Assembly (NCBI GenBank): GCA_030018475.1
Contig: JASEFT010000001.1
Location: 15,111-79,110 of the forward strand
DNA: 64,000 nt
Direction: 5' to 3'
Origin: Thermoplasmatota archaeon
GTDB lineage: Archaea > Thermoplasmatota > JASEFT01
The position numbers and the translations under genes are program-made. The notes below the pieces were generated by a model that saw only the letters and a program-made list of their open reading frames with translations, made no database searches and had not been told where the DNA came from. Below are positions 8,333 to 64,000 of the stretch, in pieces; positions within the stretch are counted from its first letter, which is position 1; each line of letters opens with the position of its first letter.

Positions 8333-8459
8333 AGTCTTGAGCTAGTCATCCTGTTCTTTGGGCTTGCTCTAGAGTAAGATAGCCGTTTCACCAAATCTCT
8401 TTAGAACTTCATGCTCTTGCAATCATCATATACTAAAGAGCTGTGCCGTTTCTGCGCTT

Positions 8460-27713: not shown

Positions 27714-27722
27714 TGGCTTTGC

Positions 27723-33063: not shown

Positions 33064-33066
33064 TTT

Positions 33067-36210: not shown

Positions 36211-36212
36211 AG

Positions 36213-39200: not shown

Positions 39201-39380
39201 AACATAATTTTTCCAGCTTGCTGCTGCAGGATGCATTGAGCTGACTGTATTATTAGACAAATTCACAGGATCTTCCCAGGTTGTTAGTCTGTTAGAACTA
39301 CTCAGAGCTACGAGAGTAATATTACTGACAACTATAGAACTTAAAACAGCCAGTACAATTACAAATTTATGCACAGTCAA
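36213..39380 (-). CDS. BNR/Asp-box beta-propeller surface protein with CARDB-like domains and C-terminal TM anchor, 1055 aa
   Basis: Asp-box motifs (SSTNGSSWD, SSDNGDNWS, STDKGLSWT). C-terminal TM plus basic tail (IVVAIAVAITITLGL-RELRRRSKKRR). Confidence 0.75.
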   Translation of the reverse strand: MTVHKFVIVLAVLSSIVVSNITLVALSSSNRLTTWEDPVNLSNNTVSSMHPAAASWKNYVHVVWEDAQGIRYNRSSSSGCVWEEVNIPASSLGRSPAIAVWQNYVHIVWVKGNFIYYLRSSTNGSSWDFYPKTIISAYCSEVRIALNETELYIVWHDQCYIRLANSSDNGDNWSPAYTIAYGYYIKNPAIACWNDSVYVAWQESEDLYTWDIYCSFSTDKGLSWTERRVTNTLSCSEKPAIAANETDAWIVWQDNRDGNWEIYWANLTALEQKKLTTTSGDSKNPAIAVNDTGIYVVWSDSTPGNFEIYLGVSYNGITWDCERVTYTNICVSDCPTLCLDNTTNIFWHDNLDGDFDIYYTRPEKERYQLKLECEINSKELNFNSSVNYTIILKNLGSRVDNIELRWEFSNQQVDTLNWSASLNLTALILEPRKDATVNLTVTASTPDINSKAYILVIAHSNYGNIEDSIETVTSIIPIYNLALECEYSSSIVEAGGIAYYTISVQNRGNRRDNVYLLDLIQVSVPFGWDSSLSDYELVLEHSETKYFYLCVKAPEADKGIAEVKVRALSKYDSTKRDYVTTYTGIKNFTIDLSCDEATKYAVPGATLNYTINVWNLVGSGEINFELNTTLWNASLSEDRIYLATGAKSLIYLYLKVPENAISGECLKVNLTSKLENYTGNIILTAIVAPIYNITAIYNKTFVIEPGKNESLNLGFKNNGNVENLLKFKLLAKPPNWEVSLSYLNFSILPNELKYLEILIFAPRAASAEEEYYLELNVSAKNVSFILNITIEVAQYYDFNIACEKPVVAGAPNTTVKYNIEVENLGNGKDIILLISNFGWLENTSSVLNLSERKNISVRVHIPFKIDNFSYEFELLIQSCGNNSLVKKITLKLILLLPDFKFADIKISNLNPKAGEEVRIRVGITNEGNITMQNVLVSLYENDALFKSEEISVLMANEVVYLWFTWYAKPGSYILRIELDPENRFPELNEDNNVFIQKFEVSFIEFWNIYLYIVVAIAVAITITLGLRELRRRSKKRRATYIYSLKKQLMKKQLIK

Positions 39381-39485
39381 TTTATTGTGCTCAGTTGTAT
39401 ATAATATTTGCGACTATGCTGAGCAATTTTGCGCCCTTATTTGACAATTTAGAAATTATATACTTGTATATCCATGTATATCTAA

Positions 39486-39695
39486 GTGAAGGAATGCTCT
39501 ATTAGAGGTTCAGTACGTGGAGAGTATAGAATCGTACAAAGAGGAATCTCTACAAAAGAGTTGCGAGAGACTATACTAAAAGGTGCTAAGACAGTGAAAT
39601 GGAATAGAATAATATCAAGATACAAAAAACTTGAGGTTGTATGGAAGAAATTGCCCTGCTTGTATTTTGTGATAACGACCTATTGGAGGGAATAA
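39486..39695 (+). CDS. small basic hypothetical protein (possible toxin-like partner)
   Basis: 69-aa ORF overlapping the start of the downstream Zn-ribbon/AbrB gene. No recognised motif. Confidence 0.25.
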   Translation: MKECSIRGSVRGEYRIVQRGISTKELRETILKGAKTVKWNRIISRYKKLEVVWKKLPCLYFVITTYWRE

Positions 39696-40027
39696 GATGG
39701 AATGTCCTATCCGCCAAAAAGGAAAACTTGTATCAAAAAAAAATTGACTACTTGTATGAGGATTTGTATCTTGGTAAGTTCGAGGCGGATGTATGCAACC
39801 AATGCGGCGAGGCTTTCTTTACAGAGAATGCTATGAATAAAATAGAAAAGAAGGCAAAAGAGATAGGAATACGGGGTCTGGAGCGAAAAACAAAGATCTC
39901 AAGGTCCGGGAACTCGCTCATTATCCGAATACCGAAAGCAATTGCTGAGTTCGTTGGTGCAAAGGATGGTACAAGTGTCACCATTCGACCCGGTGGTAAA
40001 AGTAAACTTATCGTGGCAATGGAGTAA
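39641..40027 (+). CDS. YgiT/MqsA-type zinc-ribbon plus AbrB/SpoVT swapped-hairpin DNA-binding protein (antitoxin-like)
   Basis: VCNQCGEAFF...IEKKAKE zinc-ribbon half-motif. C-terminal SGNSLIIRIPKAIAEFVG AbrB-type motif. An A9 homopolymer at 39735-39743 separates an alternative MECP... start. Confidence 0.55.
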   Translation: MEEIALLVFCDNDLLEGIRWNVLSAKKENLYQKKIDYLYEDLYLGKFEADVCNQCGEAFFTENAMNKIEKKAKEIGIRGLERKTKISRSGNSLIIRIPKAIAEFVGAKDGTSVTIRPGGKSKLIVAME

Positions 40028-40039
40028 AACACGTATCCC

Positions 40040-40431
40040 CTATACTCGTTCCACAATTCCCTTCTCCGCATCCACAACCAGCTTATCGCCCGTTTTAATC
40101 TGCTCTATTTTAATTTTATCAACACATGGTATGCCTGGTAGGATCACACCGGTAGCAACGATAGTTTCGGTTTCTTCATTTATAATCGCTCTCGGCGCTA
40201 CACCATTCTTTTTCAAGCCGTAGATCGCATAAGAGCCTGCTGTAGAGCCCTTACCGCATGGGAACACCAGTATCTTATCCTTAACACATTTGCCCTCGAG
40301 CTCGTGCCACTTTTCTATTCACGGTACCTGTCTTTGCATCTATCCCGCCGTAAAAACCAAGAGGCTCTTTTGAAACGAGCGCTTCACCTTCTGCTTTTCC
40401 TGGACAGATTGTTCTCCCTCTCATAATAACC
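40040..40431 (-). pseudogene. phosphomevalonate dehydratase small subunit (aconitase X swivel, DUF126), frameshifted
   Basis: N-terminal part MRGRTICPGKAEGEALVSKEPLGFYGGIDAKTGTV stops after ...GQMC. The C-terminal part continues in another frame (KILVFPCGKGSTAGSYAIYGL...). A single extra A in gtgaAtagaa (plus ~40318-40325) accounts for it. Confidence 0.6.
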
Positions 40432-40850
40432 TCGCTATCAGCTCATCAATATTTTTGAAAACAACCTTCTGCTTGCAAAAACTAGGCAGATAATTTGCAG
40501 CCTTGCCTGAATTGACACCTGTGGTTTTGTAGCCTATTCTTTCAATAGGTGAAACAACCATGCAAGTATCTGCAACTATTTTACTCCCGGCATTTTCTAC
40601 AATCTTCGTATAACCCATTCTGTTAGCGCATTCCTTCATAACCCTTGAGGTGCAAATCCATAATGGTTTCTTCGGTTTTTTTCCCTTTTAGCTTCTCAGC
40701 TAAAACAGATATTTCTCTTAATGAAGCGTGCGGACAACCAAGAACCACAATATTCGGATCTTTACCTGTGTTCAGTTTCTCATAAGTCTCCTTTACAAAA
40801 TGCTCGTTAAACAAAATCACCTTCCCAAAGCCCCAGCCTTCTCCCATCAA
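40421..40850 (-). pseudogene. phosphomevalonate dehydratase large subunit (aconitase X, DUF521) C-terminal fragments, N-terminally truncated and frameshifted
   Basis: Two adjacent ORF pieces (..GCPHASLREISVLA..; ..ECANRMGYTKIVEN..). They cover only ~140 of ~390 aa. The 5' end abuts the transposase remnant. Confidence 0.55.
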
Positions 40851-40866
40851 ACCTCACCGTGTGATA

Positions 40867-41037
40867 ATGAATTTGAAACGGAAAAAGTTTTTTATCTCTG
40901 CACAGATTGGAGAAATAGAAAGATTTGCTAACTCAAAGAAATTATGTTCTGATGCAGGACTTGTTCCTTCATTAAAACGATCTGGAGGCTACTTAAAAAT
41001 GGGACATATACCAAAACCGAGAAGAAAATGGAGGTGA
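40867..41037 (+). mobile_element. IS110-family transposase C-terminal remnant (Transposase_20-like)
   Basis: FISAQIGEIERFANSKKLCSDAGLVPSLKRSGG matches the IS110-family (l)aeiGdisrF...laayaGLvP...SGg signature. It is truncated by a stop, and no N-terminal DEDD domain is present. Confidence 0.5.
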
Positions 41038-41177
41038 AAATTAAGTACTCATAATCATATTGATGTAACAAAAAGGGAGCCATCAGGGGTGACGGGGGTT
41101 AAATACGTGGAGTGAATGTAGGTGTTTGGAGTAAATAGTGATAAACTAAGAGCCAACCAACAGCCCAATTTTACCTA

Positions 41178-44925: not shown

Positions 44926-46068
44926 ATGCCCTTCTCCTTCAAAGACGAATCAAAACTTTTCGTTGACTATTACGTGCCTGACGAGTTGCCTCATCGTGAA
45001 GAAGAGCTTGAGAGCCTTAAGAAAACGTTCGCGCCGATGCTCGAAAAAAATATTCCATGCAAGGCAGAAATTACAGGCGCTCCCGGAACAGGCAAAACAG
45101 CGGTTGCAAAACTATTTAGCAAAATTGTAGCTGAGAAAGCGCATGTAAAACCAGTTTACTTAAATTGCAGAGTTGTGCCGAGCGGTGTAAGTGCAATTAC
45201 AGAGACTATAGCTGAATTTGATAAAGAAGCGCGAGCGAGAGGCAAAGGTTTCTCTATGCACGAAAATTTTAAGGCTTTAGTTAAAATTTTAAAAGAGCGC
45301 GAAGCGCATTTGCTGCTTGTTCTTGACGAAGCAAACATTTTAGCAACCAAAGAGAAAGATTTTCTGTATCTTATTGGCAGGGCAAAGGAGATTGCAAAAT
45401 GCAATATTTCTGTAATTCTCATAGCTGTTTACGATATTCTTCATTACTTAGATATTGCAACTCAGGATACGTTTAGAGTAATGAATAGAATAAATTTGAA
45501 CATTTACACAGAGAAGCAGCTTATAGATATTATCAAGCAAAGAGTCGAGCTAGCATTTTATCCAAAAAGCATTACAAGTGCTTCTATAGACCTAATTGCA
45601 AAACTAGCAGCTAAGCAGGGGAGCGCTAGAATTGCAGTAGAATTGCTTAGAGGCGCAGGCTGGTATGCAATAAATAATTATCTTGACAAGATAACTCCGG
45701 AGTGCGTTAGAGCTACGCAGGCAGAAATATATCCTTTTTATAGTTATGATAAGCTCAGAGAACTAAGTGACCAAGAAAAAGCATACTTGCTGGCTGTAGC
45801 AAGAAAGCTAAAAGTCAAAGAAGAGCCTTACGCTACAAGCGGTGAAGTTGATAATCTATATCTTGTTGTGTGCGAAGAATATAATCTAGAAAAGTTAAGC
45901 TCTAGAACGTTACTGAGAATGCGCGAGAAACTAAAAGAGCACGGCTTTATAGACACTAAGAAATCTGCTACAAAAGAAGGTTTGACAAGTCATATTTACT
46001 TAACTGATATTCCTGGAAGCGTTCTGGAAGAGAAACTGGAAGAAGAATTAAAGAGATTAGCTAGATAG
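44926..46068 (+). CDS. orc1: Orc1/Cdc6 replication initiator
   Basis: Walker A GAPGTGKTAV, Walker B LVLDEAN. C-terminal winged-helix region. 380 aa. Confidence 0.88.
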   Translation: MPFSFKDESKLFVDYYVPDELPHREEELESLKKTFAPMLEKNIPCKAEITGAPGTGKTAVAKLFSKIVAEKAHVKPVYLNCRVVPSGVSAITETIAEFDKEARARGKGFSMHENFKALVKILKEREAHLLLVLDEANILATKEKDFLYLIGRAKEIAKCNISVILIAVYDILHYLDIATQDTFRVMNRINLNIYTEKQLIDIIKQRVELAFYPKSITSASIDLIAKLAAKQGSARIAVELLRGAGWYAINNYLDKITPECVRATQAEIYPFYSYDKLRELSDQEKAYLLAVARKLKVKEEPYATSGEVDNLYLVVCEEYNLEKLSSRTLLRMREKLKEHGFIDTKKSATKEGLTSHIYLTDIPGSVLEEKLEEELKRLAR

Positions 46069-50653: not shown

Positions 50654-51766
50654 ATGTTCGCGAAAAGAATGAAAAGTATAGAAGTTACTGGTATAAGAAA
50701 AATGTTCGAGCTTGCAGGCGAAGGAGCAATTAATCTAGGACTTGGCGAGCCCGATTTTCAACCTGCTCAACACATAAAAGAAGCGCTAGAAAAAGCTCTG
50801 GCAGATGGTTTTAATAAATACGGTCCTACTGCAGGTATTTATCAGTTAAGGGAAGCGGTTGCAGAAAGGCTAAAAAAATACAAGTCAGATATTACTCACG
50901 ATGAAATAATTATTACTGCAGGCGCTACCGAAGCTCTGCATGCAGCTATGCTCACTTTTATTGAAAAAGGCGATGAGGTTTTAGTTCCCAACCCAGGCTT
51001 TCCGCTATATCCAACTGAAGTTTCACTTGCAGGCGGCAAACCTGTTTTTTATAGACTGAAAGAGGATTTCATGCCTAACGTAGCTAATTTTAAGGTTAGT
51101 AAAAAAACCAAGGCTATTATTGTGAACTCGCCTTCTAATCCCACAGGAAGTGTTTTTAGCAAAGAGAAAGTAAAAGAAATAATAGAATTTGCAGAAGATA
51201 ATGACTTAATTATATTTTCAGATGAGGTTTACGACGAAATAATCTACGACTGCGAGCATTTCTCTTTTCTAGGAAATTACGATAATGTAGTGCACATAAA
51301 TTCATTTTCCAAAACTTATGCTTTGACAGGCTGGAGGCTTGGCTATTTAGCCGCTAAAAAAGAATTTGTTAATGAAATATTGAAAATGCATTACTATACA
51401 GTGGCATGTCCGCCTACACCTACTCAGTATGCAGCGCTTACAGCACTTAAAAGTTCACAGGAATGCGTTAAAAAAATGGTATCAGAATTTAGAAAAAGGC
51501 GCGATACAGCTATAAAAATCATCAATGATATGAAGGGCTTTCGCTGTGTGCCGCCCAAGGGCGCTTTCTATCTATTCCCTTCTTATAACTTAGATATTAC
51601 TTCTGAAAAGCTCGCACTGAAAATACTTGAAAAAAACGTTATTTGCGTTCCTGGAATTGCGTTTGGCACTGCTGGCGAAAGCCATTTAAGAATTTCTTAT
51701 GCAAATTCAATTGAGAACATAGAAAAGGGCTTGGGAATAGTCAGAGAAGTTGTTGAAAAGCTTTAG
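50654..51766 (+). CDS. class I/II PLP aminotransferase (paralog of 2075-3238)
   Basis: NSPSNPTG and SFSKTYALTGWRLGY motifs. The C-terminus RISYANSIENIEKG is nearly identical to that of the first paralog. Confidence 0.85.
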   Translation: MFAKRMKSIEVTGIRKMFELAGEGAINLGLGEPDFQPAQHIKEALEKALADGFNKYGPTAGIYQLREAVAERLKKYKSDITHDEIIITAGATEALHAAMLTFIEKGDEVLVPNPGFPLYPTEVSLAGGKPVFYRLKEDFMPNVANFKVSKKTKAIIVNSPSNPTGSVFSKEKVKEIIEFAEDNDLIIFSDEVYDEIIYDCEHFSFLGNYDNVVHINSFSKTYALTGWRLGYLAAKKEFVNEILKMHYYTVACPPTPTQYAALTALKSSQECVKKMVSEFRKRRDTAIKIINDMKGFRCVPPKGAFYLFPSYNLDITSEKLALKILEKNVICVPGIAFGTAGESHLRISYANSIENIEKGLGIVREVVEKL

Positions 51767-54700
51767 AATAAAAGCAACGAGAGTATAGGCGCTATAAAAA
51801 TATAATGTGTTGCGGTATCTGTTATTCGAATAGAGTTCCTGCGCGTGCTCAGTGAAAAGCCTCCAAAATTTGTCAGCGCAAGTTTATCTAGCTTGCCTAC
51901 TGGCGTACTGACAAGTATTTTGAGATTTATTTGGAGCTCTTTGACATTACAACTTAGTTCTAGAACAGGCATTTTACCAAACAGCGAATGAACAGCAAAT
52001 CTCACGCTAGTTAGCTCTACAGCTAAAAGCTCTAATTTCTCCACTCTTGCTAGTCCCACTGTAGCGTTACCAGCCTCGAACAATAGCTTATCTACGTCGC
52101 CTGTCATGAGCACAGTATCACTTTCGCTTCTCACTGAGTAATACTTCAGCCCTTCTACGTATAGCTTGTACTCTCCCTCTCTCCCAACAAGCTCGCCTGC
52201 TAGCTTTAGCTGAAAATCAAATTTCTCAGAAGCACTGATATTGAATTCAGGCAAGGCTTTATGGATAGCAAACGTCTCACCAACTAATTTCGGTGAAGGC
52301 AGTATTTTGAACTCAAATTTTTCAGGTAGTTTATGAGCTAGGAAGTAGCTTTTACGCGTTCCTTTTCCTCCTGCAATATTTAGATAGATAGCAGGTGTGG
52401 AAGAGCTTGCTTCCCAAACCATAGTAAGATTAGGCCTACGAGTAAAAGTTAAACTTAAGTTCTGAGGTACGTTAGCTATTAAAATCTCTATACTTAAATT
52501 TAGTTGCTCAAGCGTTTCTGTTAGTGTAACTTCAACTCCATCTTTCACAACCTCTTCTTCAACTATTTTTATAACTCCGCTTCCGTTTTTCAGTTCGGTA
52601 ATATTCAATAGATGCGCAAATAGTTTTGTATTATCCCTTTCTAAACTAGCGGTAAGCCAGTTAAAAGAGCTTACCCAGTTTTCAAATAAATATCTTAGCT
52701 CAAGACCGTTGCTCCTGTTCAAACTAAAAGTTCCATTTTGAGGTAGCTCTAAATACATTTTACTGTGTAAAGATGATTTTGTAGCGCTCAATGCTATTCC
52801 GTGAGTCCAAGGTAGTGTGTTTTCATCAGCGCTAAGATTAGCAATAATGATTGGGGCTTGAGCAGAAGTATAAGAGAACGTTAGGCTCTCGCTAAGTATA
52901 AGCTCTTCAAACAACTTGCCAAAGGTATGCGTAGCTTGCTCTAGAGCATTAGCAAAGGAAGATAATACTTCGAGCTTTGAAAAGTTCAGCTCCTCAAGTT
53001 CAGGTATCGCAACTAAAGGTCGCGCTAATGAAATATTGATTTTAGTAGCTAAGTTCTTAACCAATATTTTTCCTCCAGCGTAATTAGCGTTGAGAAGTAC
53101 TTTCAGAGGGTATTCTTTGAAGAGCTCTAGCTCAAAGATTTCCCCGGCTCGTAAAAATTTAAGTTTCTCTAGTCTTAGAGCTATCGCACTCTCAAAAGTA
53201 TTTACGAAAAGGTAGTTATCAGTCATTTTATAGAAATGTCCTTTACTCAATGCGCAGTGTAGCTCAACCTCAGAACCGAATTCAAAACTGACATTTTGAT
53301 TCTCTCTTGTAAAATTACCTTCCTGCGCATTTTTTACATATCCTTCTAGATTATAATTTTGAGTTTTTGCTATAATAGCAAGTTCTACAGGCTCCTTGAA
53401 AATATAACTCAGCCCTTTAACGCTACCTTCAATTGCTAGTTCTGATGGAAGCTTAGAAATATCAACTAAAATTTCTATACCCTTGTAAATGCAAATAGCT
53501 TTGAATGCCTCGTCACCGGCGCTCCTTTTTAGTAAGAGAGTTATATTTCTACCGAGCGATAGCTTGAGCTCTGTAACATTTGTCAAGCCTGCTTGGATTG
53601 AAGTGTTGAGCGACCCAATATAATTACCTGACAGCAGTAATTGTTCTGCATTTACAGTATTATTCTCAACACTACCCTTTAGAAATGCAAATTCAAGTTT
53701 AGCTATAGGAGACTGAAGGTGAAACACGTTATCAGGAGCGTAGAATGTTTCTGAGATACTTCTTAAAGCCTTCCGCACTCTGTTCATTGCGGCAGATATC
53801 CTTGCAATAACATAATTTAGAGCTCTACCGATAAAAGTATCACTGGCGTCTGGATTGAGCTCTTCTTTAGGTGGAATTGTAAAAGTACCTCTCAGCACAA
53901 GCTTTATTGGTAAATTTAAAAGCTCTAGTTTGGCTATCTGCCCAGCACTGAAATCGTAATAGATAGATGAAAATTTAGAGACTGTGCCTGAGGCGTTGTA
54001 TTCAAGGACAGAGAACGGCCTCCCAATCTCAGCTGATAGATTTATAATTGATAGATTTAGATTTGAAGGTAAGTTGCTGAGCTCGAATTCCCCATATAAA
54101 TTTTCATCTTTGTAGCAAGCGCTAATATTTGTCTCTTCGCTTCCAGACCAAGTTAGAGCTGTTCTTTCAGCAACTTCTTCATAGTAGATATTTCCATATT
54201 TTATTCCAGGCGAGAATCTTGCCTCAAACGAATTTAAAGCTTTCACAGGCTGAAATTGCGCGTAGCCTATAAAAATTGAGAGTTCAGAAATTTGTATATC
54301 CATATTCCAAGTTATTTGATAAGGTGGTGTTACGTTAATTATGGTCTGCCCGCCCATCGCAAAAGCAACGGCTTCAAGTGTAATATTTTCAGAAATTGCG
54401 GTAAAAGAAAAAGTCCCAGGTAAAGAATAGAAATAAAAACCAATTATCCAAATATAAGTTTTATTTTCGTAACTTACGGGTTTGACGAAATAGATCGTCA
54501 GGTTATCAAGCTCTCTAGCTCTATAAATATTGATATTTAACCCACCAATCAGGTGAGTGGGTGGTTCCCACCAATCCCTAAAAGGCTCGTTCACTATGCC
54601 AGTTAATACTAACGAAACAACAAAGTCGTCGTCGCCATCCCCATCAACATCTATAGAATTATTTTCATGTAGAGTAAATCCCAATTGAGGTATTGCACCG

Positions 54701-55824
54701 CCAGCTACGCCATCTCTATCAACTTGTAAAATATCATTGTAATAAGTGAATACATAATATCTTCTATCTATAGTGGCTGTTGCAACGTTGATAGTAATAT
54801 CTTCTAGCAGAGGTTTATCATCAACGCCTCCCAAAAAAACTACTGCATACATAAAATATCTTCCTGAGACAACTTCCTTAACAATTTCCTCAAAATCCGG
54901 GAATAGTTGCTTAACCGCCTCTGGAATCACGTCTCTGGAAGACCAAACTGGTACCCAAATCCCGAGAGTAAGGTTATAGGAGACCCCAACAATGATTACA
55001 ATCTCTGATAAGTGAGGTTGAGTTGTAGGATGCCAAACAACATTTTTCAAAACTGCATTATCTGTCCCTGAATCTAAAGGTGTAGAAATGAACACACCTT
55101 GAGCAGCAAGGGTATGCAGTCTAATCATATCATTTGCTATATCTACGTTTTCGCTAAAAGAGCAATTATTCCGAAAGTCAGCAGTTGTTGTATGGGTCCA
55201 TGGTTTATAAGTAGTTTCTGGAGTGATATTTGCATTCTCAATATCTTCAAATATTCTTGACCATTCAGGCTTTGGCTTACTTATTCTACCTACGTTATAA
55301 CTTATTTCTTTCGGCGATTTCTTTTCATAACCCCAGTCGAGCTCGTTAACTAAGTTCTCTGCCCTCTCTTTTACTAAGCCACTCGAACTTTCAAATTCTT
55401 GCTTCGCAAGCTCAAGTTCTTGCGGTATACCGAAGTCATTCGGTACAATTCTCGTTTCGCCAGTAGGTATAAGCGATGCTAGCTGTACGCTTGTGAGAAT
55501 TATTGCAACTACAAGAAGTATCACTATAGGCTTTATTATCCTCTGCTTTAGGAAATTCTTTAGCTTAGAACGGATAGAAACAGGAGTAGGTTTGGATGGA
55601 GCAAGAGGGGGCTCAGCTTCCTTTACCTCTTTTTCAAGCTTTGGCTTGGCTTCTTCCTTTCTTATCTCTTTCTTGGGTTCGGGCTTAGGCTCTGGCTTTG
55701 GGAGCGGCTCCCTTAAAATACCAACAGCTTTACACTCAGGGCATTTAACTTTCAAAGGTCTTTTCTTAGATGTTACTTCTATGATATGTTCGCATTTATG
55801 GCATTTGACTTTAACCTTTTCCAT
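51763..55824 (-). CDS. giant membrane-anchored surface protein with cytoplasmic N-terminal zinc ribbon, 1353 aa
   Basis: N-terminal CHKCEH...CPECK zinc ribbon, then a Pro/Glu/Lys-rich linker, a TM (IVILLVVAIILTSVQLASLI) and a ~1200-aa sequon-rich ectodomain. Confidence 0.7.
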   Translation of the reverse strand: MEKVKVKCHKCEHIIEVTSKKRPLKVKCPECKAVGILREPLPKPEPKPEPKKEIRKEEAKPKLEKEVKEAEPPLAPSKPTPVSIRSKLKNFLKQRIIKPIVILLVVAIILTSVQLASLIPTGETRIVPNDFGIPQELELAKQEFESSSGLVKERAENLVNELDWGYEKKSPKEISYNVGRISKPKPEWSRIFEDIENANITPETTYKPWTHTTTADFRNNCSFSENVDIANDMIRLHTLAAQGVFISTPLDSGTDNAVLKNVVWHPTTQPHLSEIVIIVGVSYNLTLGIWVPVWSSRDVIPEAVKQLFPDFEEIVKEVVSGRYFMYAVVFLGGVDDKPLLEDITINVATATIDRRYYVFTYYNDILQVDRDGVAGGAIPQLGFTLHENNSIDVDGDGDDDFVVSLVLTGIVNEPFRDWWEPPTHLIGGLNINIYRARELDNLTIYFVKPVSYENKTYIWIIGFYFYSLPGTFSFTAISENITLEAVAFAMGGQTIINVTPPYQITWNMDIQISELSIFIGYAQFQPVKALNSFEARFSPGIKYGNIYYEEVAERTALTWSGSEETNISACYKDENLYGEFELSNLPSNLNLSIINLSAEIGRPFSVLEYNASGTVSKFSSIYYDFSAGQIAKLELLNLPIKLVLRGTFTIPPKEELNPDASDTFIGRALNYVIARISAAMNRVRKALRSISETFYAPDNVFHLQSPIAKLEFAFLKGSVENNTVNAEQLLLSGNYIGSLNTSIQAGLTNVTELKLSLGRNITLLLKRSAGDEAFKAICIYKGIEILVDISKLPSELAIEGSVKGLSYIFKEPVELAIIAKTQNYNLEGYVKNAQEGNFTRENQNVSFEFGSEVELHCALSKGHFYKMTDNYLFVNTFESAIALRLEKLKFLRAGEIFELELFKEYPLKVLLNANYAGGKILVKNLATKINISLARPLVAIPELEELNFSKLEVLSSFANALEQATHTFGKLFEELILSESLTFSYTSAQAPIIIANLSADENTLPWTHGIALSATKSSLHSKMYLELPQNGTFSLNRSNGLELRYLFENWVSSFNWLTASLERDNTKLFAHLLNITELKNGSGVIKIVEEEVVKDGVEVTLTETLEQLNLSIEILIANVPQNLSLTFTRRPNLTMVWEASSSTPAIYLNIAGGKGTRKSYFLAHKLPEKFEFKILPSPKLVGETFAIHKALPEFNISASEKFDFQLKLAGELVGREGEYKLYVEGLKYYSVRSESDTVLMTGDVDKLLFEAGNATVGLARVEKLELLAVELTSVRFAVHSLFGKMPVLELSCNVKELQINLKILVSTPVGKLDKLALTNFGGFSLSTRRNSIRITDTATHYIFIAPILSLLLF

Positions 55825-55870: not shown

Positions 55871-55944
55871 TGCGTCTGCCGGGATTTGAACCCGGGCTAT
55901 GAGCTTGGGAAGCTCAAGTCCTAACCAGACTAGACTACAGACGC
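55871..55944 (-). tRNA. tRNA-Gly (anticodon CCC), no encoded CCA
   Basis: Manual cloverleaf fold. Acceptor GCGUCUG/CAGACGC, D-stem GUCU/GGAC, anticodon stem UGAGC/GCUCA with loop UUCCCAA, T-stem CCGGG/CCCGG with loop UUCAAAU, discriminator A. Confidence 0.9.
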
Positions 55945-56651: not shown

Positions 56652-57464
56652 TTGGATGAGTTACTACGTAAAAAAACAGGGCTAAAAATTAACTTGATGA
56701 AGCAACTGTCAGATAGTTTCTCTAAAGTTTACGAGAGGAAGCTTACTGAAGAGATCTTAGCAAATCCTCTTCCTAATCATATAGCTATTATAATGGACGG
56801 AAATAGAAGATTTGCAGAAAAGCTAGGCTTGAAGCCTATTGAAGGACATGTCATGGGCAGGGATAAACTAGAAGAAGTGCTTGACTGGTGTTTAGAGCTA
56901 GGTATAAAGATAGTTACTGTTTATGCGCTTTCTACGGAGAATATTATGAGAACTGCTGAGGAGTTAAAAGCGCTCTTGGAACTTTTCACAGAAAGTTTCA
57001 GAAAGGCTGGCGATGATGAAAGAGTACACAGAAACAAAGTAAGAATAAAAGCTATTGGCAGAGTAGATATTTTGCCTAGAGAAGTTCAAGAATCGATAAA
57101 ATATGCAGAAGATAGGACAAAAGAGCACGAGAATTACTATCTTAACATAGCAATAGCTTACGGGGGCAGGGAGGAAATAGTGCAGGCTGTGAGAGGAATT
57201 GCAAATGATGTGAAGGTTGGTAAATTAGATGAAAGCAGTATAAACGAGGAGCTAATATCTTCTTATCTCTATACTAAAGATTTGCCTGATCCTGATTTGA
57301 TTTTAAGGACTTCTGGTGAGGAAAGAATCTCTAATTTCCTGCTCTGGCAGCTTGCTTATTCAGAACTATATTTTGCAGATGTTTATTGGCCTGAACTTAG
57401 AAAGATAGATTTTCTTAGAGCAATAAGAGCTTATCAGCATCGTCAGCGCAGGTTTGGAGAGTAA
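56652..57464 (+). CDS. uppS: cis-prenyltransferase (undecaprenyl/dehydrodolichyl diphosphate synthase)
   Basis: HIAIIMDGNRRFA and downstream RTSGE..SNFLLWQ motifs. 270 aa. Confidence 0.85.
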   Translation: MDELLRKKTGLKINLMKQLSDSFSKVYERKLTEEILANPLPNHIAIIMDGNRRFAEKLGLKPIEGHVMGRDKLEEVLDWCLELGIKIVTVYALSTENIMRTAEELKALLELFTESFRKAGDDERVHRNKVRIKAIGRVDILPREVQESIKYAEDRTKEHENYYLNIAIAYGGREEIVQAVRGIANDVKVGKLDESSINEELISSYLYTKDLPDPDLILRTSGEERISNFLLWQLAYSELYFADVYWPELRKIDFLRAIRAYQHRQRRFGE

Positions 57465-57499: not shown

Positions 57500-59992
57500 A
57501 TGAAAATAAAAAAGCTTAGCGCTGTGATAGCCTTTGTTCTTATATTGCTCTCGTCCCTGAGTTTTATTCCTTTAAATGCCAAAGGCGCTGTTGTGGAAAG
57601 TGATAGCGAAGTACCAATAGCTCTATATTTTCATAGGAATAATACAATGAATACCACTCCGCCAGCCGTAGGCGTAGAGGCGAAAGCATCACTAAAAGAT
57701 GGTGGATCAATAACTTTTTTCTCTCCTGAGTTGAAAGAGGATCTAACTGTGAACACAATTTACTGCAACGTTAGTTTTTATCTAGAGATCAAAGTTACAC
57801 AAGTACATACGCCGCACACTGATCCAAACGAAACTGTTGATGTGAAGTTGAGTTTCTCTTTCGAGAATCCAGAGCTGCGTGCAGAGGCTACAGAATGGTT
57901 TGAAGACGTTATCGAATGGAGTGGCTGGAAAACAGTCAATCTTACTTACGATAAGACTGGTAAGGTTACATTAAAAAAATATTCTAACTTAACTTTAAAA
58001 ATCTCTTCAAAAGCGGTTCCCTCGTCAATTCTTGCATACAACTATAATGTAACGCTTTACTACGACGAGAAAAATTACGCATCGCAGGTATCATTTCCTT
58101 GTTCGCCGGTAACAGCCACTGTAACTACAGAAGGTGGTACTGAATTCAAGCCTTATGCGCCAACCCCCGAAATACCATTTAAAGGAAACATAAAAGACGC
58201 TTTTGACAACGAAGACTTAAAAGAAGTAAGATTAGAAATCAATGGCCCAGGCTATCATTATACTACTCCGCCACTGGAAAATATAACAACCGGCGATTAC
58301 ACCTATAAATGGAACTATTCTGGTGAGAGCTCCAGACTGAAAGCAGGCAACTACACAGCAAGACTTAACGTAATAACTCATCAGCATACATTTTACAAAA
58401 CCACTAATTTTACGTTTATTGCCTGCGCTTTGGATTCATGGTCAAATCGTACATATGAAACAATACTTGTAGGCAAGTCTGCAAGCTATGCAGTAGCTAT
58501 AAGAAACACAGGTTCATATGATACTACAGTTACTATCAATATATCTTTCGATATACAAATTATACCCGGCGGAAGTCATTTATGGAACATAACTGTTTTT
58601 GACAAAGATAGAGGCGTTATTGTGGGTAACGTAAGTACTAACGCAAGCAGGAGTTTGTATTATGATGTTTACAATTTCAATGGCGGCAGTACTAAAAATC
58701 TTATTTTAACTGTAACTTCTGCAGACACCACAATAGGCGTGGATTGGAAATGCAGAGTAGATTTACATGCACGCTCGATTACTCCCGGCCATGAGGCAGA
58801 TGCGCCGCCAGTTACTATTTTCACTTATATTGCGGCGCCTTACGAAATAAATATCACATGGTCGAAAAGGTATGATTACATACTTGTTAACAGACTATAC
58901 CAGCTCGAGCTTACTGTAATTAATCTAGGCTCTATGCCGGATTCGGTTGAAATTGTGCTCAACTATACTAATAAAGCTGTCTGGAATATAACCTTAGAAA
59001 AGGACATCGTAGAAAATCTTAATCCCTATGGCTCACCAGGCTATTTTAGTGCAGTTAAACTTAACGTTACAGCTAATACCACCGCAGGTGCAGATAATAC
59101 TACACTAAACATTACTGCAGAATCTGTTTACGCGCCACTGGATTATAAAGCCAACTGGACTAATAAGACACTCAAATATTTAACTCTAGAGCTTAAGCGC
59201 GCGTTCGGAATATCTCTGCCTGATGTGGGTGAGTATACTAAGAATGTAGATGTGAAAGTTTCTCAAGATCAAGCGCAATATACAATCGCTCTAGAAACTA
59301 ATGACGAGATTCCTCATTTGGTTAGGCTAACTGCAAACGCAACTCCTCCTTTAACCGCAACTCTTGAAAGTACTTACGTAGAAGTCTCTAAAGCTACTCG
59401 TAAGGAAGTAATTTTAACAGTTACAGCTCCTAAAGGAACTCGCGCAGGCAGCTATACAACAATTATAAACGTGGGTATTGAGGTAGAAGGTATCGTTAGT
59501 CCGGAGCATACTAAAACGAAATCTGTAATTACAATTGTAAATACTTACTATGATATAGACGTGGTATGGTCTGACGAAAACATCAAGGTTATTAATCTTA
59601 CCGCCTCTCCAGGCGCTACGATAACGAAGAGCTTAAAAGTAACTAATAAAGGCAATAATTTTACAGATGTCGCTCTATTTCTGGCTAAGGGTTGGGAATA
59701 TGCTAGTTTAGAAACAGAGCGTATAGATGGATTGGCGCCAGCCCCCAACAACACCTGTAAAATAGATATAATTTTGAAAATACCTAGTGATGCAAAGCAC
59801 GGCCAGAAAATTCTAATTGAAGTAAGAGCTACTGCTTATGGCGAAACAGAAACTACAACTCTTATAATTGAAGTTACTAAAACAGAGCTGGAGCGCTTTT
59901 GGGACATTCTAGCTCAGATGGCTCATTTCATTATACTTTTAATCGCTGTTATTGTTGTTTTTGTAACGATGTGGCTGAAGAGAAGGAAGTAG
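57500..59992 (+). CDS. cell-surface glycoprotein-like protein with N-terminal signal and C-terminal TM anchor, 830 aa
   Basis: Signal (LSAVIAFVLILLSSLSF). Repeated Ig/CARDB-like segments with dense NxS/T. C-terminal TM plus basic tail (FIILLIAVIVVFVTMWLKRRK). Confidence 0.7.
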   Translation: MKIKKLSAVIAFVLILLSSLSFIPLNAKGAVVESDSEVPIALYFHRNNTMNTTPPAVGVEAKASLKDGGSITFFSPELKEDLTVNTIYCNVSFYLEIKVTQVHTPHTDPNETVDVKLSFSFENPELRAEATEWFEDVIEWSGWKTVNLTYDKTGKVTLKKYSNLTLKISSKAVPSSILAYNYNVTLYYDEKNYASQVSFPCSPVTATVTTEGGTEFKPYAPTPEIPFKGNIKDAFDNEDLKEVRLEINGPGYHYTTPPLENITTGDYTYKWNYSGESSRLKAGNYTARLNVITHQHTFYKTTNFTFIACALDSWSNRTYETILVGKSASYAVAIRNTGSYDTTVTINISFDIQIIPGGSHLWNITVFDKDRGVIVGNVSTNASRSLYYDVYNFNGGSTKNLILTVTSADTTIGVDWKCRVDLHARSITPGHEADAPPVTIFTYIAAPYEINITWSKRYDYILVNRLYQLELTVINLGSMPDSVEIVLNYTNKAVWNITLEKDIVENLNPYGSPGYFSAVKLNVTANTTAGADNTTLNITAESVYAPLDYKANWTNKTLKYLTLELKRAFGISLPDVGEYTKNVDVKVSQDQAQYTIALETNDEIPHLVRLTANATPPLTATLESTYVEVSKATRKEVILTVTAPKGTRAGSYTTIINVGIEVEGIVSPEHTKTKSVITIVNTYYDIDVVWSDENIKVINLTASPGATITKSLKVTNKGNNFTDVALFLAKGWEYASLETERIDGLAPAPNNTCKIDIILKIPSDAKHGQKILIEVRATAYGETETTTLIIEVTKTELERFWDILAQMAHFIILLIAVIVVFVTMWLKRRK

Positions 59993-60105
59993 TAGAAGAA
60001 ACTCTTCAGAGAAAGAAAAAGTAGGTCAAAGTTTTGTCTTTTTGAAAAGCAGTGAAAATATTATTAATATAGCAAATCATTTCTCTAAAAAGGTGAACTG
60101 GCAAA

Positions 60106-63100
60106 ATGAGCGCAAAAGGAGTTTGGGTCGCATATTTGGCTTTGGGACTGCTCGTTGCTGGATTGGTAGTAAGTGCGCAGCAAAATATCTGGAATCAGAA
60201 TGAGAAGAATATTGTGAAGGCAAGCGGAGACGAAATAATAGATAGTGCGATAACATGGTTTAATTTAACTAAGATTATGGATGGCAATCTCACAATAACT
60301 TCAACTGGTAAACTCACGCTCAGAAATGTTACCCTGATAATGAACTGCACAATAAACGGTCAATATTATATTGAAGTACAGAGCGGCGGAGAAATGTACA
60401 TTTTGAACAATTCTAACATAACTTCTGCGAGAGAGTTTCATTATCTTTTCTGGGTGCGCAATAATAGCACATTTGAAATGAGGGATAGTGAGTTCCACGG
60501 GTGCGGGTACGCTAACTGGACAGAGCCAAGTCATAGAGGACTATTCATTCAAGCGAATAATACAGTGATAGCAAATAATCTGATTTCAAATAACTATTAT
60601 GGGATATTCCTTTATCAATCTTCGGATGGACTAATTCTCGATAATAACATAAGTTCGAACCAAGATGGTATAGAACTTTACTACTCCACTAACAACCTAA
60701 TATCTAACAATCAAATAAGTTCGAGTATCTCTGTGGGCATCTATCTAGATATTAGTTCTACGCACAATATTTTATTGAACAATACTATTAAAGGCGATGG
60801 AATTTCAGGTGATTATGGTATCGTCGTCTCTCAATCAAATAATAATACAATTTCAAACAATAAAGTAAGCTCAGAAGATTATGGTATCTATCTCGATAGC
60901 TCAGGCAATATTACCATCGTAAACTGTAGTGTATTAAACAGCGAAACGGGTATATCGCTCGAGGACTACTCTCACAATAATCGATTAATCAGTAACGAAA
61001 TACGCAATAACAAATACGATGGCATCAGGCTAGATAATTCTGACAACAACACATTAATTGGAAATCTATTATACAACAATTCTTATGATGATGCTTACGG
61101 CGGGATTCGTCTCTCCCACAGTGATAATAATTTGATATTTAATTGCTCCATGATCAATAACTTTTATAATGGGATTATAATTAGTCACTCGAGCAGCAAT
61201 ATCGTTGATAGCTGCAATATTTCTGGTAATGAACATAACGGGACAAGAGTTGAGTTTTCTAAAAACAATGCAATTGTAAATTCAACTATCTCTGGCAATT
61301 ATTCTAATCTGAGCTATCGCGATATTTACTTGTGGGGCGACTCAATACTGAGCCTTGTGAATACTACATTTAACAGTTCGAGCGTGTTCATCATCTCGCC
61401 TCTCGCTATACTCAATGTTTCTTGGTATTTGAACGTTAAAGTTATAGACACTGATGCAAAGCCAATCCATTATGCTAACGTTGCTGTTAGAGATAATCAT
61501 AGCAAATTAGTAGGAAATTTTGCAACTGATAAAGGAGGCTGGGCGAAATATATTCCTTGCATGGCATATAGTGAGAACATTACCGGCAGAGATTACTCAA
61601 TGAACAATCACAGTATAGTCGTTGGTAATAACACTCAGAGCCATAATATGTCAGAAAACCAAGAGATAGTCATGCCTGTAAGCTATTTCTCTATAGCAAG
61701 TCCTGTCCCAACTGCTCTGAGCTACGAAAACTATCTAATTGTGCAAGAAAATAATCTGACAATCACTGAAAACGGAACTCTAACCTTGAGCAATATAACT
61801 CTAAAAATGAACTGTAGCTATAACGGCTCACTTGCTATTGAAGTTTTGAGCGGTGGTGAAATGTATATTCTCAACAACTCAAACATCACCTCAACAAATT
61901 CAAACAATCATTATCTTTTCTGGGTGCGCAATGATAGCAAATTTGAGATGAGGGATTCTGAGTTGAGTGAGTGCGGATACGACTACCCTTATGACTCTGC
62001 GGGGCTTTGGGTAAATACAGATAATGCTATCATAGAAAACTCCACTCTTTCATGGAATTATAAAGGAATAATCTTAGACTGCTCCAATTGGAGTACCATT
62101 TCAAACACTACTATTTCATATAACAACAATGACGGGGTTGACATTATCTCCGCTATGAATAGCAGTATAGCAAACTGCACAATAAATAACAATTGTCGTG
62201 GCATCGTTTTGGACTATTCTATAAACAACATCGTAATAGACTGTACAATTTACAATGTTTTTGGTGGTTTTCATCTTGAATATTCTTCATATAATATAAT
62301 CACGAACTGTACAATCTACGACTCTGACATCGGCATCTATCTTGGACTTTCTTCGGTGAACATCATAACAAACTGTGTAATTTACAATGGCTCTCAGGGC
62401 ATCCAATTTTCTTTTTCTTTAAATAATATTGTAGAAAATTGCGCAATCTACAACAGCTCCGGGTGGGGCATCTATATGTCCTCCTCGTCGGATTACAACA
62501 ATATAATAAAATGCACGATTTATAATAACAGCTACAATGGTATAAAAATTGTTTACTCCTCAAACAACACCATAACAAATTGTACGATCTATAATAACTC
62601 CCCCTACGGCATCCATATTTACTGGACATATTTAACCATTTATCCGTGCCCAAATAATACCAAAATCATAAACTGCGCCATTTATAACAACTCATGGGCT
62701 GGCATTAAAATAGATTCTTCTCTAAACACCGATATAATAAACTGCGTAATTTATAACAGTTCTTCTGGCATCTCTCTCTACAATTCTTCAAATAACGTTA
62801 TGACAAACTCTAGTATCTATAACAATTTTTACGATTTATATTTATCTGAGCATTCCATGCTTCACTGTCTCAATACTACGTTCGATAAATCTAAAGTTCA
62901 GTTTCCCTTTGGCGACTACAACTCCACTCTCAACGTCTCTTGGTATCTGCACATTAACGTTCTCTGGAACAACAGCGTTCCTGCAGAAGAGGCGAACGTT
63001 AGCGTTCGAGATTTTAATTGTACATTTGATATGATAAATAGAATAACTGATCTATTTGGCTGGGTGAAAGACATAGTTGTTCAGGAATACACTCAAAATC

Positions 63101-64000
63101 AGACAAATACTACATACTTTATTCCTTATAATGTAAATGCTTCTCAAGGCGCTTTCTGGAATTCAACTTCTATACCAATAACTAATACTCTAGAGCTTAT
63201 ACTTTACCTTAATCAACCGTTTCCGCATAACGCGCCTGAAATCTCGGATATATCACCGGATCTAAAATATACAATAACAGAAGGCGTTAGAGTTGAGTTT
63301 AAATTCAACATCTTTCATCAAAATAATTTAACTCTAACTTACTATTGGTATTTTAGTGACGTAGAAGTGAAAAACAACACTCTAGAAAACACTAATATCA
63401 CGCAAGAACTCAACTGGAGCAAATATTTTGACTATCTTTCTGGCAGCGAAATCGGTACTGAATATAAAATCAAAATTAAAATTTCAGACAGCAATGCAAC
63501 TGTATCTAGGACTTGGAAAGTAATAGTGATAAATATCGATGCTCCACCTGAAATTACATCTTACGAGCCGAAATGGTATACTATGAGCATAACTGAAGAG
63601 CAAATAATAACTTTTACTGTCGTGGTTTTCGAAGCAGACTGCGATGCTATAAGCTATTGGTGGTATGTTTATTACGAAAATGTAACTGAGTGGGTTAAAA
63701 CATATGGCGGAGTTAATGCTACAGGCACGCAATCGTTCGGACCTTTTGATGCAGCTGGGAATTATACTGTGTTGGTAAATGTTTCTAGTTACAATGCAAC
63801 TCTTAATGAGAGTTTAACTGTCACACATAATTGGCTTTTGAGGGTTTGGAATGTAACTGAGTTAAGCCAGCAGCTCGCTAACTTACAGCAGCAAATAAAT
63901 ACGATGAACGATACGATAACAAATTTAAATTCAAACCTTACTCAATCAAACGCTACTATTAGCTCTTTACAAGACCAGCTTGACACACTAAACGGTACTG
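60106..64000 (+). CDS. giant right-handed parallel beta-helix (PbH1/NosD-like) surface protein, 3' partial (runs off window), at least 1298 aa
   Basis: ATG at 60106 with AGGTGA 10 nt upstream. Signal/TM (VWVAYLALGLLVAGLVV). Two ~540-aa modules, each starting G.LTL.N.TL.MNC...EV.SGGEMYILNNSNITS...HYLFWVRN and filled with PbH1-like repeats (N.I..N.....GI.L). Coiled-coil-like heptads near 63850-64000. Not in the ORF track because no stop occurs in the window. Confidence 0.65.
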   Translation, partial: MSAKGVWVAYLALGLLVAGLVVSAQQNIWNQNEKNIVKASGDEIIDSAITWFNLTKIMDGNLTITSTGKLTLRNVTLIMNCTINGQYYIEVQSGGEMYILNNSNITSAREFHYLFWVRNNSTFEMRDSEFHGCGYANWTEPSHRGLFIQANNTVIANNLISNNYYGIFLYQSSDGLILDNNISSNQDGIELYYSTNNLISNNQISSSISVGIYLDISSTHNILLNNTIKGDGISGDYGIVVSQSNNNTISNNKVSSEDYGIYLDSSGNITIVNCSVLNSETGISLEDYSHNNRLISNEIRNNKYDGIRLDNSDNNTLIGNLLYNNSYDDAYGGIRLSHSDNNLIFNCSMINNFYNGIIISHSSSNIVDSCNISGNEHNGTRVEFSKNNAIVNSTISGNYSNLSYRDIYLWGDSILSLVNTTFNSSSVFIISPLAILNVSWYLNVKVIDTDAKPIHYANVAVRDNHSKLVGNFATDKGGWAKYIPCMAYSENITGRDYSMNNHSIVVGNNTQSHNMSENQEIVMPVSYFSIASPVPTALSYENYLIVQENNLTITENGTLTLSNITLKMNCSYNGSLAIEVLSGGEMYILNNSNITSTNSNNHYLFWVRNDSKFEMRDSELSECGYDYPYDSAGLWVNTDNAIIENSTLSWNYKGIILDCSNWSTISNTTISYNNNDGVDIISAMNSSIANCTINNNCRGIVLDYSINNIVIDCTIYNVFGGFHLEYSSYNIITNCTIYDSDIGIYLGLSSVNIITNCVIYNGSQGIQFSFSLNNIVENCAIYNSSGWGIYMSSSSDYNNIIKCTIYNNSYNGIKIVYSSNNTITNCTIYNNSPYGIHIYWTYLTIYPCPNNTKIINCAIYNNSWAGIKIDSSLNTDIINCVIYNSSSGISLYNSSNNVMTNSSIYNNFYDLYLSEHSMLHCLNTTFDKSKVQFPFGDYNSTLNVSWYLHINVLWNNSVPAEEANVSVRDFNCTFDMINRITDLFGWVKDIVVQEYTQNQTNTTYFIPYNVNASQGAFWNSTSIPITNTLELILYLNQPFPHNAPEISDISPDLKYTITEGVRVEFKFNIFHQNNLTLTYYWYFSDVEVKNNTLENTNITQELNWSKYFDYLSGSEIGTEYKIKIKISDSNATVSRTWKVIVINIDAPPEITSYEPKWYTMSITEEQIITFTVVVFEADCDAISYWWYVYYENVTEWVKTYGGVNATGTQSFGPFDAAGNYTVLVNVSSYNATLNESLTVTHNWLLRVWNVTELSQQLANLQQQINTMNDTITNLNSNLTQSNATISSLQDQLDTLNGT

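Follow-up and report, generated by a model that had tools for sequence, protein, structure and literature searches.

Allelic beta-helix cassettes in the heads of a predicted stalked surface glycoprotein from an uncultured Thermoplasmatota archaeon

The stretch of DNA analysed here (the window) comprises 64,000 nucleotides (nt) of a Thermoplasmatota archaeon (GenBank assembly GCA_030018475.1, contig JASEFT010000001.1, positions 15,111 to 79,110 of the forward strand) and ends in a long open reading frame (ORF) for a beta-helix surface protein (Table 1). An earlier reading of the letters alone, the sequence-only reading, had described this ORF as an unannotated gene that runs off the window and might hide a misread stop codon. 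On translation all 1298 codons were open, and running off the window was the sole reason for the absence of the frame from the list of ORFs. The gene is, however, already public as MDI6855221.1 from a Candidatus Thermoplasmatota metagenome-assembled genome (MAG) with the locus-tag prefix QMD21, where it lies on a contig of 86.5 kb and bears only the generic name "right-handed parallel beta-helix repeat-containing protein". In a database search, the window ORF matched the first 94% of this protein of 1376 amino acids (aa) (P0001; 100% identity, 100% coverage), which places the last 78 codons beyond the window and the end of the gene about 237 nt past its edge. Upstream, a TATA-like A/T-rich element (AAAATATTATTAATATA, 60055-60071) and the motif GGTGA (60092-60096), with 9 nt between its end and the ATG, may act as promoter and ribosome binding site (RBS); this region is identical in the orthologue from the MAG QME47 and a comparable TATA-like element (TTATAAAAGATTATATA) is found in a second lineage.

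Table 1. Features of the beta-helix gene, identity along its product and other features of the window. Identities of P0001 segments are amino-acid identities to P0002, the orthologue of MAG QME47 (locus L001), in 30-aa bins; TM, transmembrane.
Feature	Position	Strand	Remarks
Gene of beta-helix surface (predicted) glycoprotein, codons 1-1298 of 1376	60106..64000	+	open frame; GenBank MDI6855221.1
Putative archaeal promoter and RBS	60055..60096	+	read from sequence
Sec-type signal peptide (aa 1-24)	60106..60177	+	MSAK, hydrophobic core, predicted cleavage between VSA and QQ
Cap 1, start of beta-helix module 1 (aa 57-135)	60274..60510	+	68% identical to cap 2
Variable cassette 1: second half of cap 1 and most of core 1	60402..61095	+	flanks 97.8% and 94.5% identical to L001
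Beta-helix core 1 (aa 136-435)	60511-61410	+	module 1
Beta-sandwich 1 and linker (aa 436-545)	61411..61740	+	homologous to sandwich 2; conserved (100% identity to QME47 over aa 421-560)
Cap 2 (aa 546-625)	61741..61980	+	conserved; 90-100% amino-acid identity to QME47
Variable cassette 2: core 2 (aa 626-941), ~16 coils	61980..62919	+	no BLASTN match to L001
Beta-sandwich 2, beginning LNVSWYL (aa 942-1040)	62929..63225	+	98.5% DNA identity to QME47
Two Ig/PKD-like domains (aa 1041-1243)	63226..63834	+	each opens with an 'HNAP/DAPPEI' linker
Start of heptad coiled-coil stalk (aa 1244-~1345, cut at window end)	63835..64000	+	3-4 hydrophobic spacing
P0001 segment	aa 1-90		90-100%
P0001 segment, core 1	aa 91-330		30-63% where aligned
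P0001 segment	aa 331-420		73-93%
P0001 segment	aa 421-570		100%
P0001 segment	aa 571-630		80-93%
P0001 segment, core 2	aa 631-930		20-47%
P0001 segment	aa 961-1376		90-100%
cis-Prenyltransferase, UppS family	56652..57464	+	Pfam Prenyltransf 1.3e-83; TIGR00055 287 bits vs cut-off 109.55
830-aa lineage-restricted surface protein, syntenic partner	57500..59992	+	signal peptide, C-terminal TM helix and KRRK
First surface-protein cluster	26463-39380	-	DUF58, MoxR-type AAA_3 ATPase, DUF4350, then three ~1050-aa secreted proteins
1953-aa surface protein	14365-20226	-	at least 13 CarboxypepD_reg domains; sequon z=9.2
1353-aa protein	51763-55824	-	no Pfam/NCBIfam match; sequon z=6.7
Archaeal RNase P RNA	8247-8538	-	133.7 bits
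tRNA-Gly(CCC)	55871-55944	-	
Cdc6/Orc1 homologue	44926-46068	+	
STAND/NB-ARC-type NTPase with N-terminal helix-turn-helix	20323-21957	+	

The encoded protein consists of a Sec signal peptide, two head modules (each a cap, a beta-helix of about 16 coils and a beta-sandwich), two Ig/PKD-like domains, a coiled coil, a transmembrane (TM) helix and a basic tail. Kyte-Doolittle windows above 1.6 occurred exactly twice in the whole protein, at aa 2-26, in agreement with the N-terminal signal or TM segment noted earlier, and at aa 1347-1371, the TM helix, which is followed by the tail RRKKK; both of the latter lie beyond the window and were taken from P0001. As these are the only two hydrophobic segments, a type-I membrane topology is predicted, in which almost the whole protein lies outside the cell. 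The coiled coil had been taken for the end of the protein. Its heptads do keep a 3-4-3-4 hydrophobic spacing without a break over aa 1250-1313, in a stalk of about 100 aa, and the frame continues past the window edge, but it is the TM helix and RRKKK that close the protein. Coiled-coil families matched over the stalk in profile searches, and its heptads have I, L or V at position a and L at position d, residues which do not discriminate the oligomeric state. No PGF-CTERM/archaeosortase motif was present before the TM helix, the C-terminus reading ...YRLAAGVIGGVLAGIFAGAFVLALSTRRKKK with no PGF.

The duplication of the head module was upheld by self-comparison, in which aa 57-497 aligned with aa 546-1004 at 39% identity (E=1e-64), although the period was about 490 aa (1470 nt) and not the ~540 aa first estimated. 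A 74-nt DNA repeat, 85% identical, recurs at the same distance of 1470 nt, and the caps, which had been called near-identical, share their 68% identity over 80 aa, compared with only about 33% between the two cores. The PbH1-type coils were likewise recovered, with Pfam PF13229 (Beta_helix) matching seven stretches at E=7.7e-92 and 305.5 bits (cut-off 25.9) and TIGR03804 matching seven stretches at 167.3 bits (cut-off 19.45); core 2 contains coil repeats of 69 nt. The AlphaFold model of aa 536-1298 (mean predicted local distance difference test, pLDDT, 79.6) is a right-handed helix with three strands per coil and about 16 coils at pLDDT ~95 over ~400 residues, after which the beta-sandwich and the first Ig-like domain are predicted at pLDDT 68-89. 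In this model sandwich 2 (model residues 406-500) is all-beta at pLDDT 68-89 and the first Ig-like domain reaches 74-88, while the second Ig-like region is poorly modelled and a long helix follows. A second model (aa 942-1376, mean pLDDT 53), used for secondary-structure topology only and not for fold search, has three beta domains and then one helix of 102 residues. PF13620 appeared in the precomputed domain lists of multi-module relatives at domains equivalent to sandwich 2. PKD_4 matched five of the seven orthologous C-terminal halves, yet not the window sequence itself, and an exhaustive HMMER search of representatives found the Ig/PKD-like domain to be a repeated domain in many large proteins. 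The unit of cap, beta-helix and sandwich also occurs as 2-4 tandem modules in the much larger proteins P0003, P0005, P0010, P0014, P0020 and P0029; P0020 is annotated as Lokiarchaeia, and at the C-terminal end several of these multi-module proteins carry a TM helix together with CARDB, fibronectin or dockerin-like regions. The module is widespread as a building block of archaeal proteins.

QME47 encodes the only full-length orthologue (P0002, locus L001). P0001 and P0002 were 67% identical overall, and the identity formed a mosaic along their length (Table 1). BLASTN of the window against L001 returned three shared blocks at 97.8%, 94.5% and 98.5% DNA identity and no match at the orthologous position over 60402-61095 or 61980-62919; the first part of cap 1 is conserved up to a breakpoint inside this cap at ~60402. 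Within cassette 1 (aa 100-330) the identity was 48.5% for amino acids and 57% for nucleotides, and 46 of the 98 codons for identical residues differed; for cassette 2 the values were 34.6%, 49% and 59 of 101, whereas in the C-terminal block only 6 of 345 such codons differed. The transitions were abrupt, the nucleotide identity shifting inside one 20-codon bin from 95% to 52% on entering core 2 and from 51% to 98% on leaving it, and the background proteins of QMD21 and QME47 were 98-99.6% identical. As the cores are saturated at synonymous sites and their flanks nearly unchanged, they represent anciently diverged cores in a young background and not the outcome of local amino-acid selection. 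The beta-helix cores are hypervariable allelic cassettes that are replaced wholesale between otherwise near-identical strains. This is the most interesting property of the gene, and it had been missed by the sequence-only reading.

The pattern was reproduced in a second lineage with one-module versions of the protein (P0004, P0006-P0009, P0011-P0013, P0127 and loci L008-L013). Its alleles keep the signal peptide, cap, sandwich, two Ig/PKD domains, coiled coil and TM helix, followed by RRKLPKKG, and the locus order of UppS, a TM-anchored protein of 830-873 aa, the beta-helix protein and a beta-CASP gene is shared by about ten syntenic alleles. Their mean pairwise amino-acid identity was 83% for the signal peptide and cap, 76% for the C-terminal half and 51% for the core, with core lengths of 217 to 372 aa. 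A second near-isogenic pair was formed by L010 and L011, whose flanks are 97.3% and 99.3% identical and whose C-terminal halves are 100% identical, while the cores share 49% of their amino acids and no DNA homology. L008 and L003 are 100% identical except for sharp-edged patches, in the neighbour gene and in the part of the coiled coil next to the membrane, where the identity falls to 84-87%; this is a classic recombination mosaic. Synteny and the cassette pattern were also kept in a third lineage (L016) at ~75% background identity, with a different cap type in the first module. Nearly every sampled allele has its own unique core, and as only P0008 and P0013 among 13 sampled cores share a segment (at least 70% identity over at least 35 aa), the pool of cores must be large.

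The sandwich that follows the helix in the second-lineage allele P0004/L003 (…IQDFNCTFDLINRTTDKLGW…) is of the window type (…VRDFNCTFDMINRITDLFGW…, 62929-63225), and other second-lineage alleles carry a different type (…IQDNENGTFDENHTTDKNG…), which hints at cassette sharing across lineage boundaries. A foreign base composition of the cores was considered and rejected, their GC content being 34.6-36% against 36-39.5% in the conserved blocks and the GC content at third codon positions unremarkable; the lower value in the cores follows from their Asn/Ile/Ser-rich composition. A TBLASTN search for silent donor cassettes, with the four cores as queries and the window and L001 as targets, found none outside the gene itself.

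Besides the cassettes, the protein stands out by its NxS/T sequons, of which 84 occur in the full protein, where its own composition predicts 34.5 (z=10.3), and 82 in the 1298-aa window part, against 35.0 +/- 4.9 in shuffles. The density is about one per 16 residues rather than one "every few residues", as had been claimed, but the excess is far above composition and agrees with the heavy N-glycosylation that the same claim had implied. Sequons are present in every extracellular domain, seven of them on the coiled coil, and are absent from the TM helix and the tail. The z values ranged from 5.7 to 14.6 in all seven predicted surface proteins of the window and were about 0 in its cytoplasmic ORFs, -0.8 and -1.5 in two bacterial beta-helix homologues, and 0.6 and 1.0 in the Methanosarcina and Methanoperedens homologues. 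As the excess is limited to surface proteins and missing in the bacterial homologues, it is no by-product of the Asn-rich PbH1 repeat. It is instead specific to lineage and compartment, and it fits heavy N-glycosylation of the protein.

Taking these results together, we regard it as probable that the ORF encodes a type-I, C-terminally membrane-anchored, stalked cell-surface protein of an uncultured Candidatus Thermoplasmatota archaeon that would be heavily N-glycosylated. From the cassette replacement and the synteny we infer a mechanism in which homologous recombination would swap each beta-helix core for an anciently diverged version, with the conserved cap at one side and the last coils and the sandwich at the other as the recombination arms. 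Strains that are otherwise ~98% identical would thereby display different heads, and the driver is presumed to be frequency-dependent selection by viruses or partners. The coiled coil would oligomerise and hold the beta-helix heads tens of nanometres off the membrane. Wholesale exchange of surface heads is a typical microbial way to vary what viruses and partners meet. A farther-reaching proposal, which we put forward tentatively as a possibility, is that the locus is a domain-level archaeal "variable surface antigen" system, in which the cap and the last coils with the sandwich would be retained partly as recombination arms, a large pool of heads would be shuffled on a constant SlaB-like stalk, and the heads would chiefly determine virus adsorption, or the recognition of other cells or symbionts, in these wall-less archaea.

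By analogy with adhesin-like proteins, the heads most likely bind or recognise glycans, other cells or substrates and also form an outer glycoprotein coat; the label "adhesin-like" given to the beta-helix protein earlier derives from its architecture and stays putative. A membrane-tethered polysaccharide-active enzyme (lyase, epimerase or glycosidase) has to be weighed against this, whose allelic cores would differ in substrate specificity, like those of the depolymerases in phage tailspikes. In the PDB, the alginate C5-epimerases AlgG and AlgE4, polysaccharide lyases and tailspike endoglycosidases are indeed the best matches by sequence and fold, and tailspikes (P22, Sf6, HK620) likewise pair a conserved anchor with swapped beta-helix domains. 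However, Foldseek matched AlgE4, AlgG and tailspikes with a probability of 1.0 at an identity of only 9-15% and TM-scores of 0.1-0.5, and in terms of fold these matches look like generic carbohydrate-binding or -processing beta-helices. The epimerase motif DPH[DE] was absent from all 10 alleles. Across 11 modules the core residues conserved at 85% or more were only G/N/S/I/L/T/F/V scaffold positions and no D, E, H, K, R or Y in the core reached this level, a test that is blind to allele-specific active sites, while all charged, aromatic and Cys residues so conserved lay in the cap or at the helix-sandwich junction. As neither the motif nor a conserved charged core residue was found, a conserved enzyme is unlikely and a stalked binding surface is the best reading; we consider the enzyme, with its variable specificities, very improbable. 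An assignment to NosD was also tried and rejected: the Pfam NosD match (E=7e-56) reflects shared PbH1 repeats only, TIGR04247 scored 83.1 bits against a cut-off of 300, and no nos cluster (nosZ, nosF, nosY, nosL) accompanies the gene, its neighbours being UppS, the 830-aa surface protein and, at the orthologous loci, a beta-CASP nuclease. The protein could instead be a lattice-forming, main S-layer-type coat protein, with the coiled-coil stalk setting the spacing of a beta-helix canopy, and not an adhesin. Its C-terminal half, with beta domains, a sequon-bearing coiled coil, a TM helix and a basic tail, is like SlaB and tetrabrachion-type stalks, the extreme sequon density recalls known archaeal S-layer glycoproteins, and the gene has its own promoter-like element and RBS and a conserved syntenic partner surface protein. 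Lattice contacts would however be hard to keep with heads swapped at 33-50% identity and with a varying number of coils (core lengths of 217-372 aa), at least six more large surface proteins rich in sequons are encoded within these 64 kb and qualify just as well, and no solved S-layer protein was among the top 50 fold matches listed, so that we consider this role rather unlikely.

For the origin of the mosaic, wholesale replacement by recombination was weighed against fast local evolution of the cores in place, by positive selection or by a mechanism of targeted hypermutation, for instance a diversity-generating retroelement. Exposure at the surface and the many repeats make strong diversifying selection, and slippage between the 69-nt coil repeats, plausible for this region, and a graded zone of 80-90% nucleotide identity lies beside core 1 at aa 341-400. 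Yet amino-acid selection does not yield synonymous saturation in the cores beside 6 of 345 codons changed nearby, the identity changes within single 20-codon bins at both edges of core 2, and the orthologous core 2 (33% amino-acid identity) is no closer than the paralogous module (29-33%). No template-like second core copy was detected in the window or L001, and recombination mosaics are directly visible elsewhere in the locus, between L008 and L003. A retroelement target was rejected as the core differences hit all bases and include indels instead of being adenine-specific, and no reverse transcriptase was seen among the ORFs scanned, which included only part of the small ones. Evolution in place is accordingly highly improbable. 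An assembly or binning artefact, in which chimeric contigs join paralogous beta-helix genes through their cap and sandwich repeats, would be in keeping with data that are all short-read MAGs or metagenome contigs, with a locus that fragments assemblies and leaves many alleles on contigs of 2-8 kb, and with the QME47 neighbour gene broken across contig ends. Against it, every allele is an intact ORF of identical architecture with the same flanking genes, L008, L009, L003 and L013 are mutually consistent, and the cap repeats within the gene, only 85% identical over 74 nt, are a poor substrate for misjoining. Moreover, L002 and L010, from ENA and JGI records, gave the same allele at 99.97% over 7.1 kb, an independent recovery which argues against a chimeric assembly; we give this explanation hardly any credence.

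Several points weigh against the reading as a stalked, glycosylated protein with recombining heads. Every sequence comes from MAGs or metagenome contigs, and there are only two near-isogenic pairs. Donor sequences were not found by the TBLASTN search described above. Confidence is low for the second Ig-like domain and for the model of the C-terminal part, and no oligosaccharyltransferase (AglB) gene was seen among the scanned window ORFs. Neither the stalk nor the GGEMYILNN cap motif has relatives in the IMG/VR viral contigs, which makes the viral link purely inferential. The homology of the stalk to SlaB is unproven, as only the coiled coil gave a match (8qox_B, aa 1212-1362, E=6.8e-7); a query with the helix only scored an unrelated coiled-coil protein higher, and coiled coils of unrelated function score similarly, so that the match may be compositional.

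The gene directly upstream of the beta-helix gene in three lineages encodes the 830-aa protein, for which only two homologues were found among 5.8 billion proteins searched. With its signal peptide, TM anchor, sequon excess (z=6.6) and conserved synteny it supports the earlier view that the two genes make up a second surface-protein locus. The QME47 assembly breaks inside this neighbour, the N-terminal 268 aa being 99.6% and the C-terminal 250 aa 98.8% identical with the middle missing; L008 and L003 differ by a patch of 84-85% inside it amid 100% identity, and second-lineage versions are only 45% identical to one another. The neighbour may thus itself be variable, judging from these sequences. 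UppS lies directly upstream of the two surface-protein genes in three lineages (L009 927-1700; L016 478-1200). Enzymes of this type make the polyprenol or dolichol carrier used for N-glycosylation, and the adjacency could reflect a functional tie to this lipid carrier or mere synteny.

The first surface-protein cluster (26463-39380) resembles MoxR-DUF58-type operons, and its three ~1050-aa proteins have sequon z values of 5.7-14.6 and carry Big_3_5/CarboxypepD_reg/DUF4129 domains, bacterial TSP3 repeats and CARDB. In the gene of the 1953-aa protein, a 273-bp tandem repeat (15717-16466; 2.7 copies, 97% identical) suggests recent domain expansion. The 1353-aa protein combines a zinc-ribbon-like CxxC...CxxC motif at its N-terminus with a linker rich in Lys, Pro and Glu and a TM segment; being 98.4% identical in QME47 and 97.6% in QMC98, it is not variable, unlike the beta-helix protein. 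The region 39400-41100 has no long ORF, and several short adjacent minus-strand ORFs at 40040-40850 look by eye like pieces of one disrupted aconitase-X/DUF521-DUF126 type gene. The region may be a decayed insertion site, with a short fragment similar to the C-terminus of a transposase at 40861-41037 and a small ORF of zinc-ribbon/AbrB-like type at 39641-40027. The archaeal RNase P RNA and tRNA-Gly(CCC) place the window in Archaea. The Cdc6/Orc1 homologue indicates that a replication origin may be nearby.

Hardly any archaeal envelope proteins have been characterised except in a few model organisms, and the widespread Thermoplasmatota have for the most part not been cultured. The locus exemplifies the fusion of beta-helix heads and a SlaB-like coiled-coil stalk in a single polypeptide, lineage-specific selection for N-glycosylation sequons, which are not enriched in bacterial homologues with this fold, and strain-level recombinational replacement of one domain in a gene that is conserved elsewhere. 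Should the heads serve as virus receptors or adhesins, the locus would be a natural marker of strain-level virus-host or partner specificity and a tractable case for the upkeep of archaeal surface diversity. As the locus fragments short-read assemblies, MAGs systematically lack such genes or contain them in truncated form. Exchange of cassettes at the level of domains is clean and reproducible across lineages, and nothing in it contradicts expectation; the protein belongs to known kinds, namely archaeal beta-helix adhesin-like proteins, SlaB-like stalks and recombination-driven surface diversity, as a new variation in architecture.

The closest described class is that of the adhesin-like proteins (ALPs) of gut methanogens. 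In Methanobrevibacter and Methanosphaera these are large envelope proteins with often-repeated right-handed beta-helix (RBH) domains N-terminal to Ig-like domains and a single membrane-anchoring helix, and their function was inferred from architecture (PMC11532034). The present protein has the same elements of RBH domains, Ig-like domains and one anchoring helix. However, ALPs are mostly anchored N-terminally, whereas the C-terminal anchor found here, behind a coiled coil of ~100 aa, is a minority arrangement in that survey, which reports no coiled-coil stalk and no glycosylation (0 occurrences of either term; PMC11532034). The defined, duplicated cap-helix-sandwich module and the helix cores as allelic cassettes also distinguish it from ALPs. 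With SlaB, the S-layer stalk of Sulfolobus acidocaldarius (PDB 8QOX), it shares a signal peptide, beta-sandwich or Ig-like domains, a long, sequon-bearing C-terminal coiled coil and a C-terminal TM helix (PMC10903991). SlaB, however, has 475 aa and no beta-helix and supports a separate canopy protein, SlaA (PMC10903991), whereas here the stalk and ~1000 aa of beta-helix heads form a single polypeptide, which in this respect is nearer to the tetrabrachion of Staphylothermus.

In evolutionary terms, the closest parallel is found in the replacement flexible genomic islands or cell-wall islands of aquatic prokaryotes such as GI1 of Haloquadratum walsbyi, in which divergent cell-surface glycoprotein genes occupy the same position between conserved flanks in all strains, are maintained side by side in the population, are diversified by homologous recombination and are read as a means of virus escape (PMC4535781, PMC4033161). 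In the two independent pairs described here, divergent content of the same class likewise occupies the same locus between conserved flanks (94.5-99.3%), with the mosaic identity and sharp breakpoints of homologous recombination. Whereas the islands replace whole genes or clusters, the exchanged unit is here an intragenic domain of ~0.7-0.9 kb, with two cassettes in one ORF, and, unlike in the islands, the exchange would use as arms those parts of the same gene that code for structural elements of the protein (cap, sandwich). A further parallel is offered by podovirus tailspikes (P22, Sf6, HK620), in which a conserved attachment domain carries unrelated beta-helix receptor-binding domains and specificity is exchanged in modular fashion. 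Tailspikes are, however, viral, trimeric endoglycosidases with catalytic acidic residues, whereas the present protein is a cellular membrane protein without conserved catalytic residues and, unlike the tailspikes with their viral origin, without relatives in viral contigs. If the proposal of a domain-level variable surface antigen is true, the locus would be a cellular mirror image of phage tailspike module exchange.

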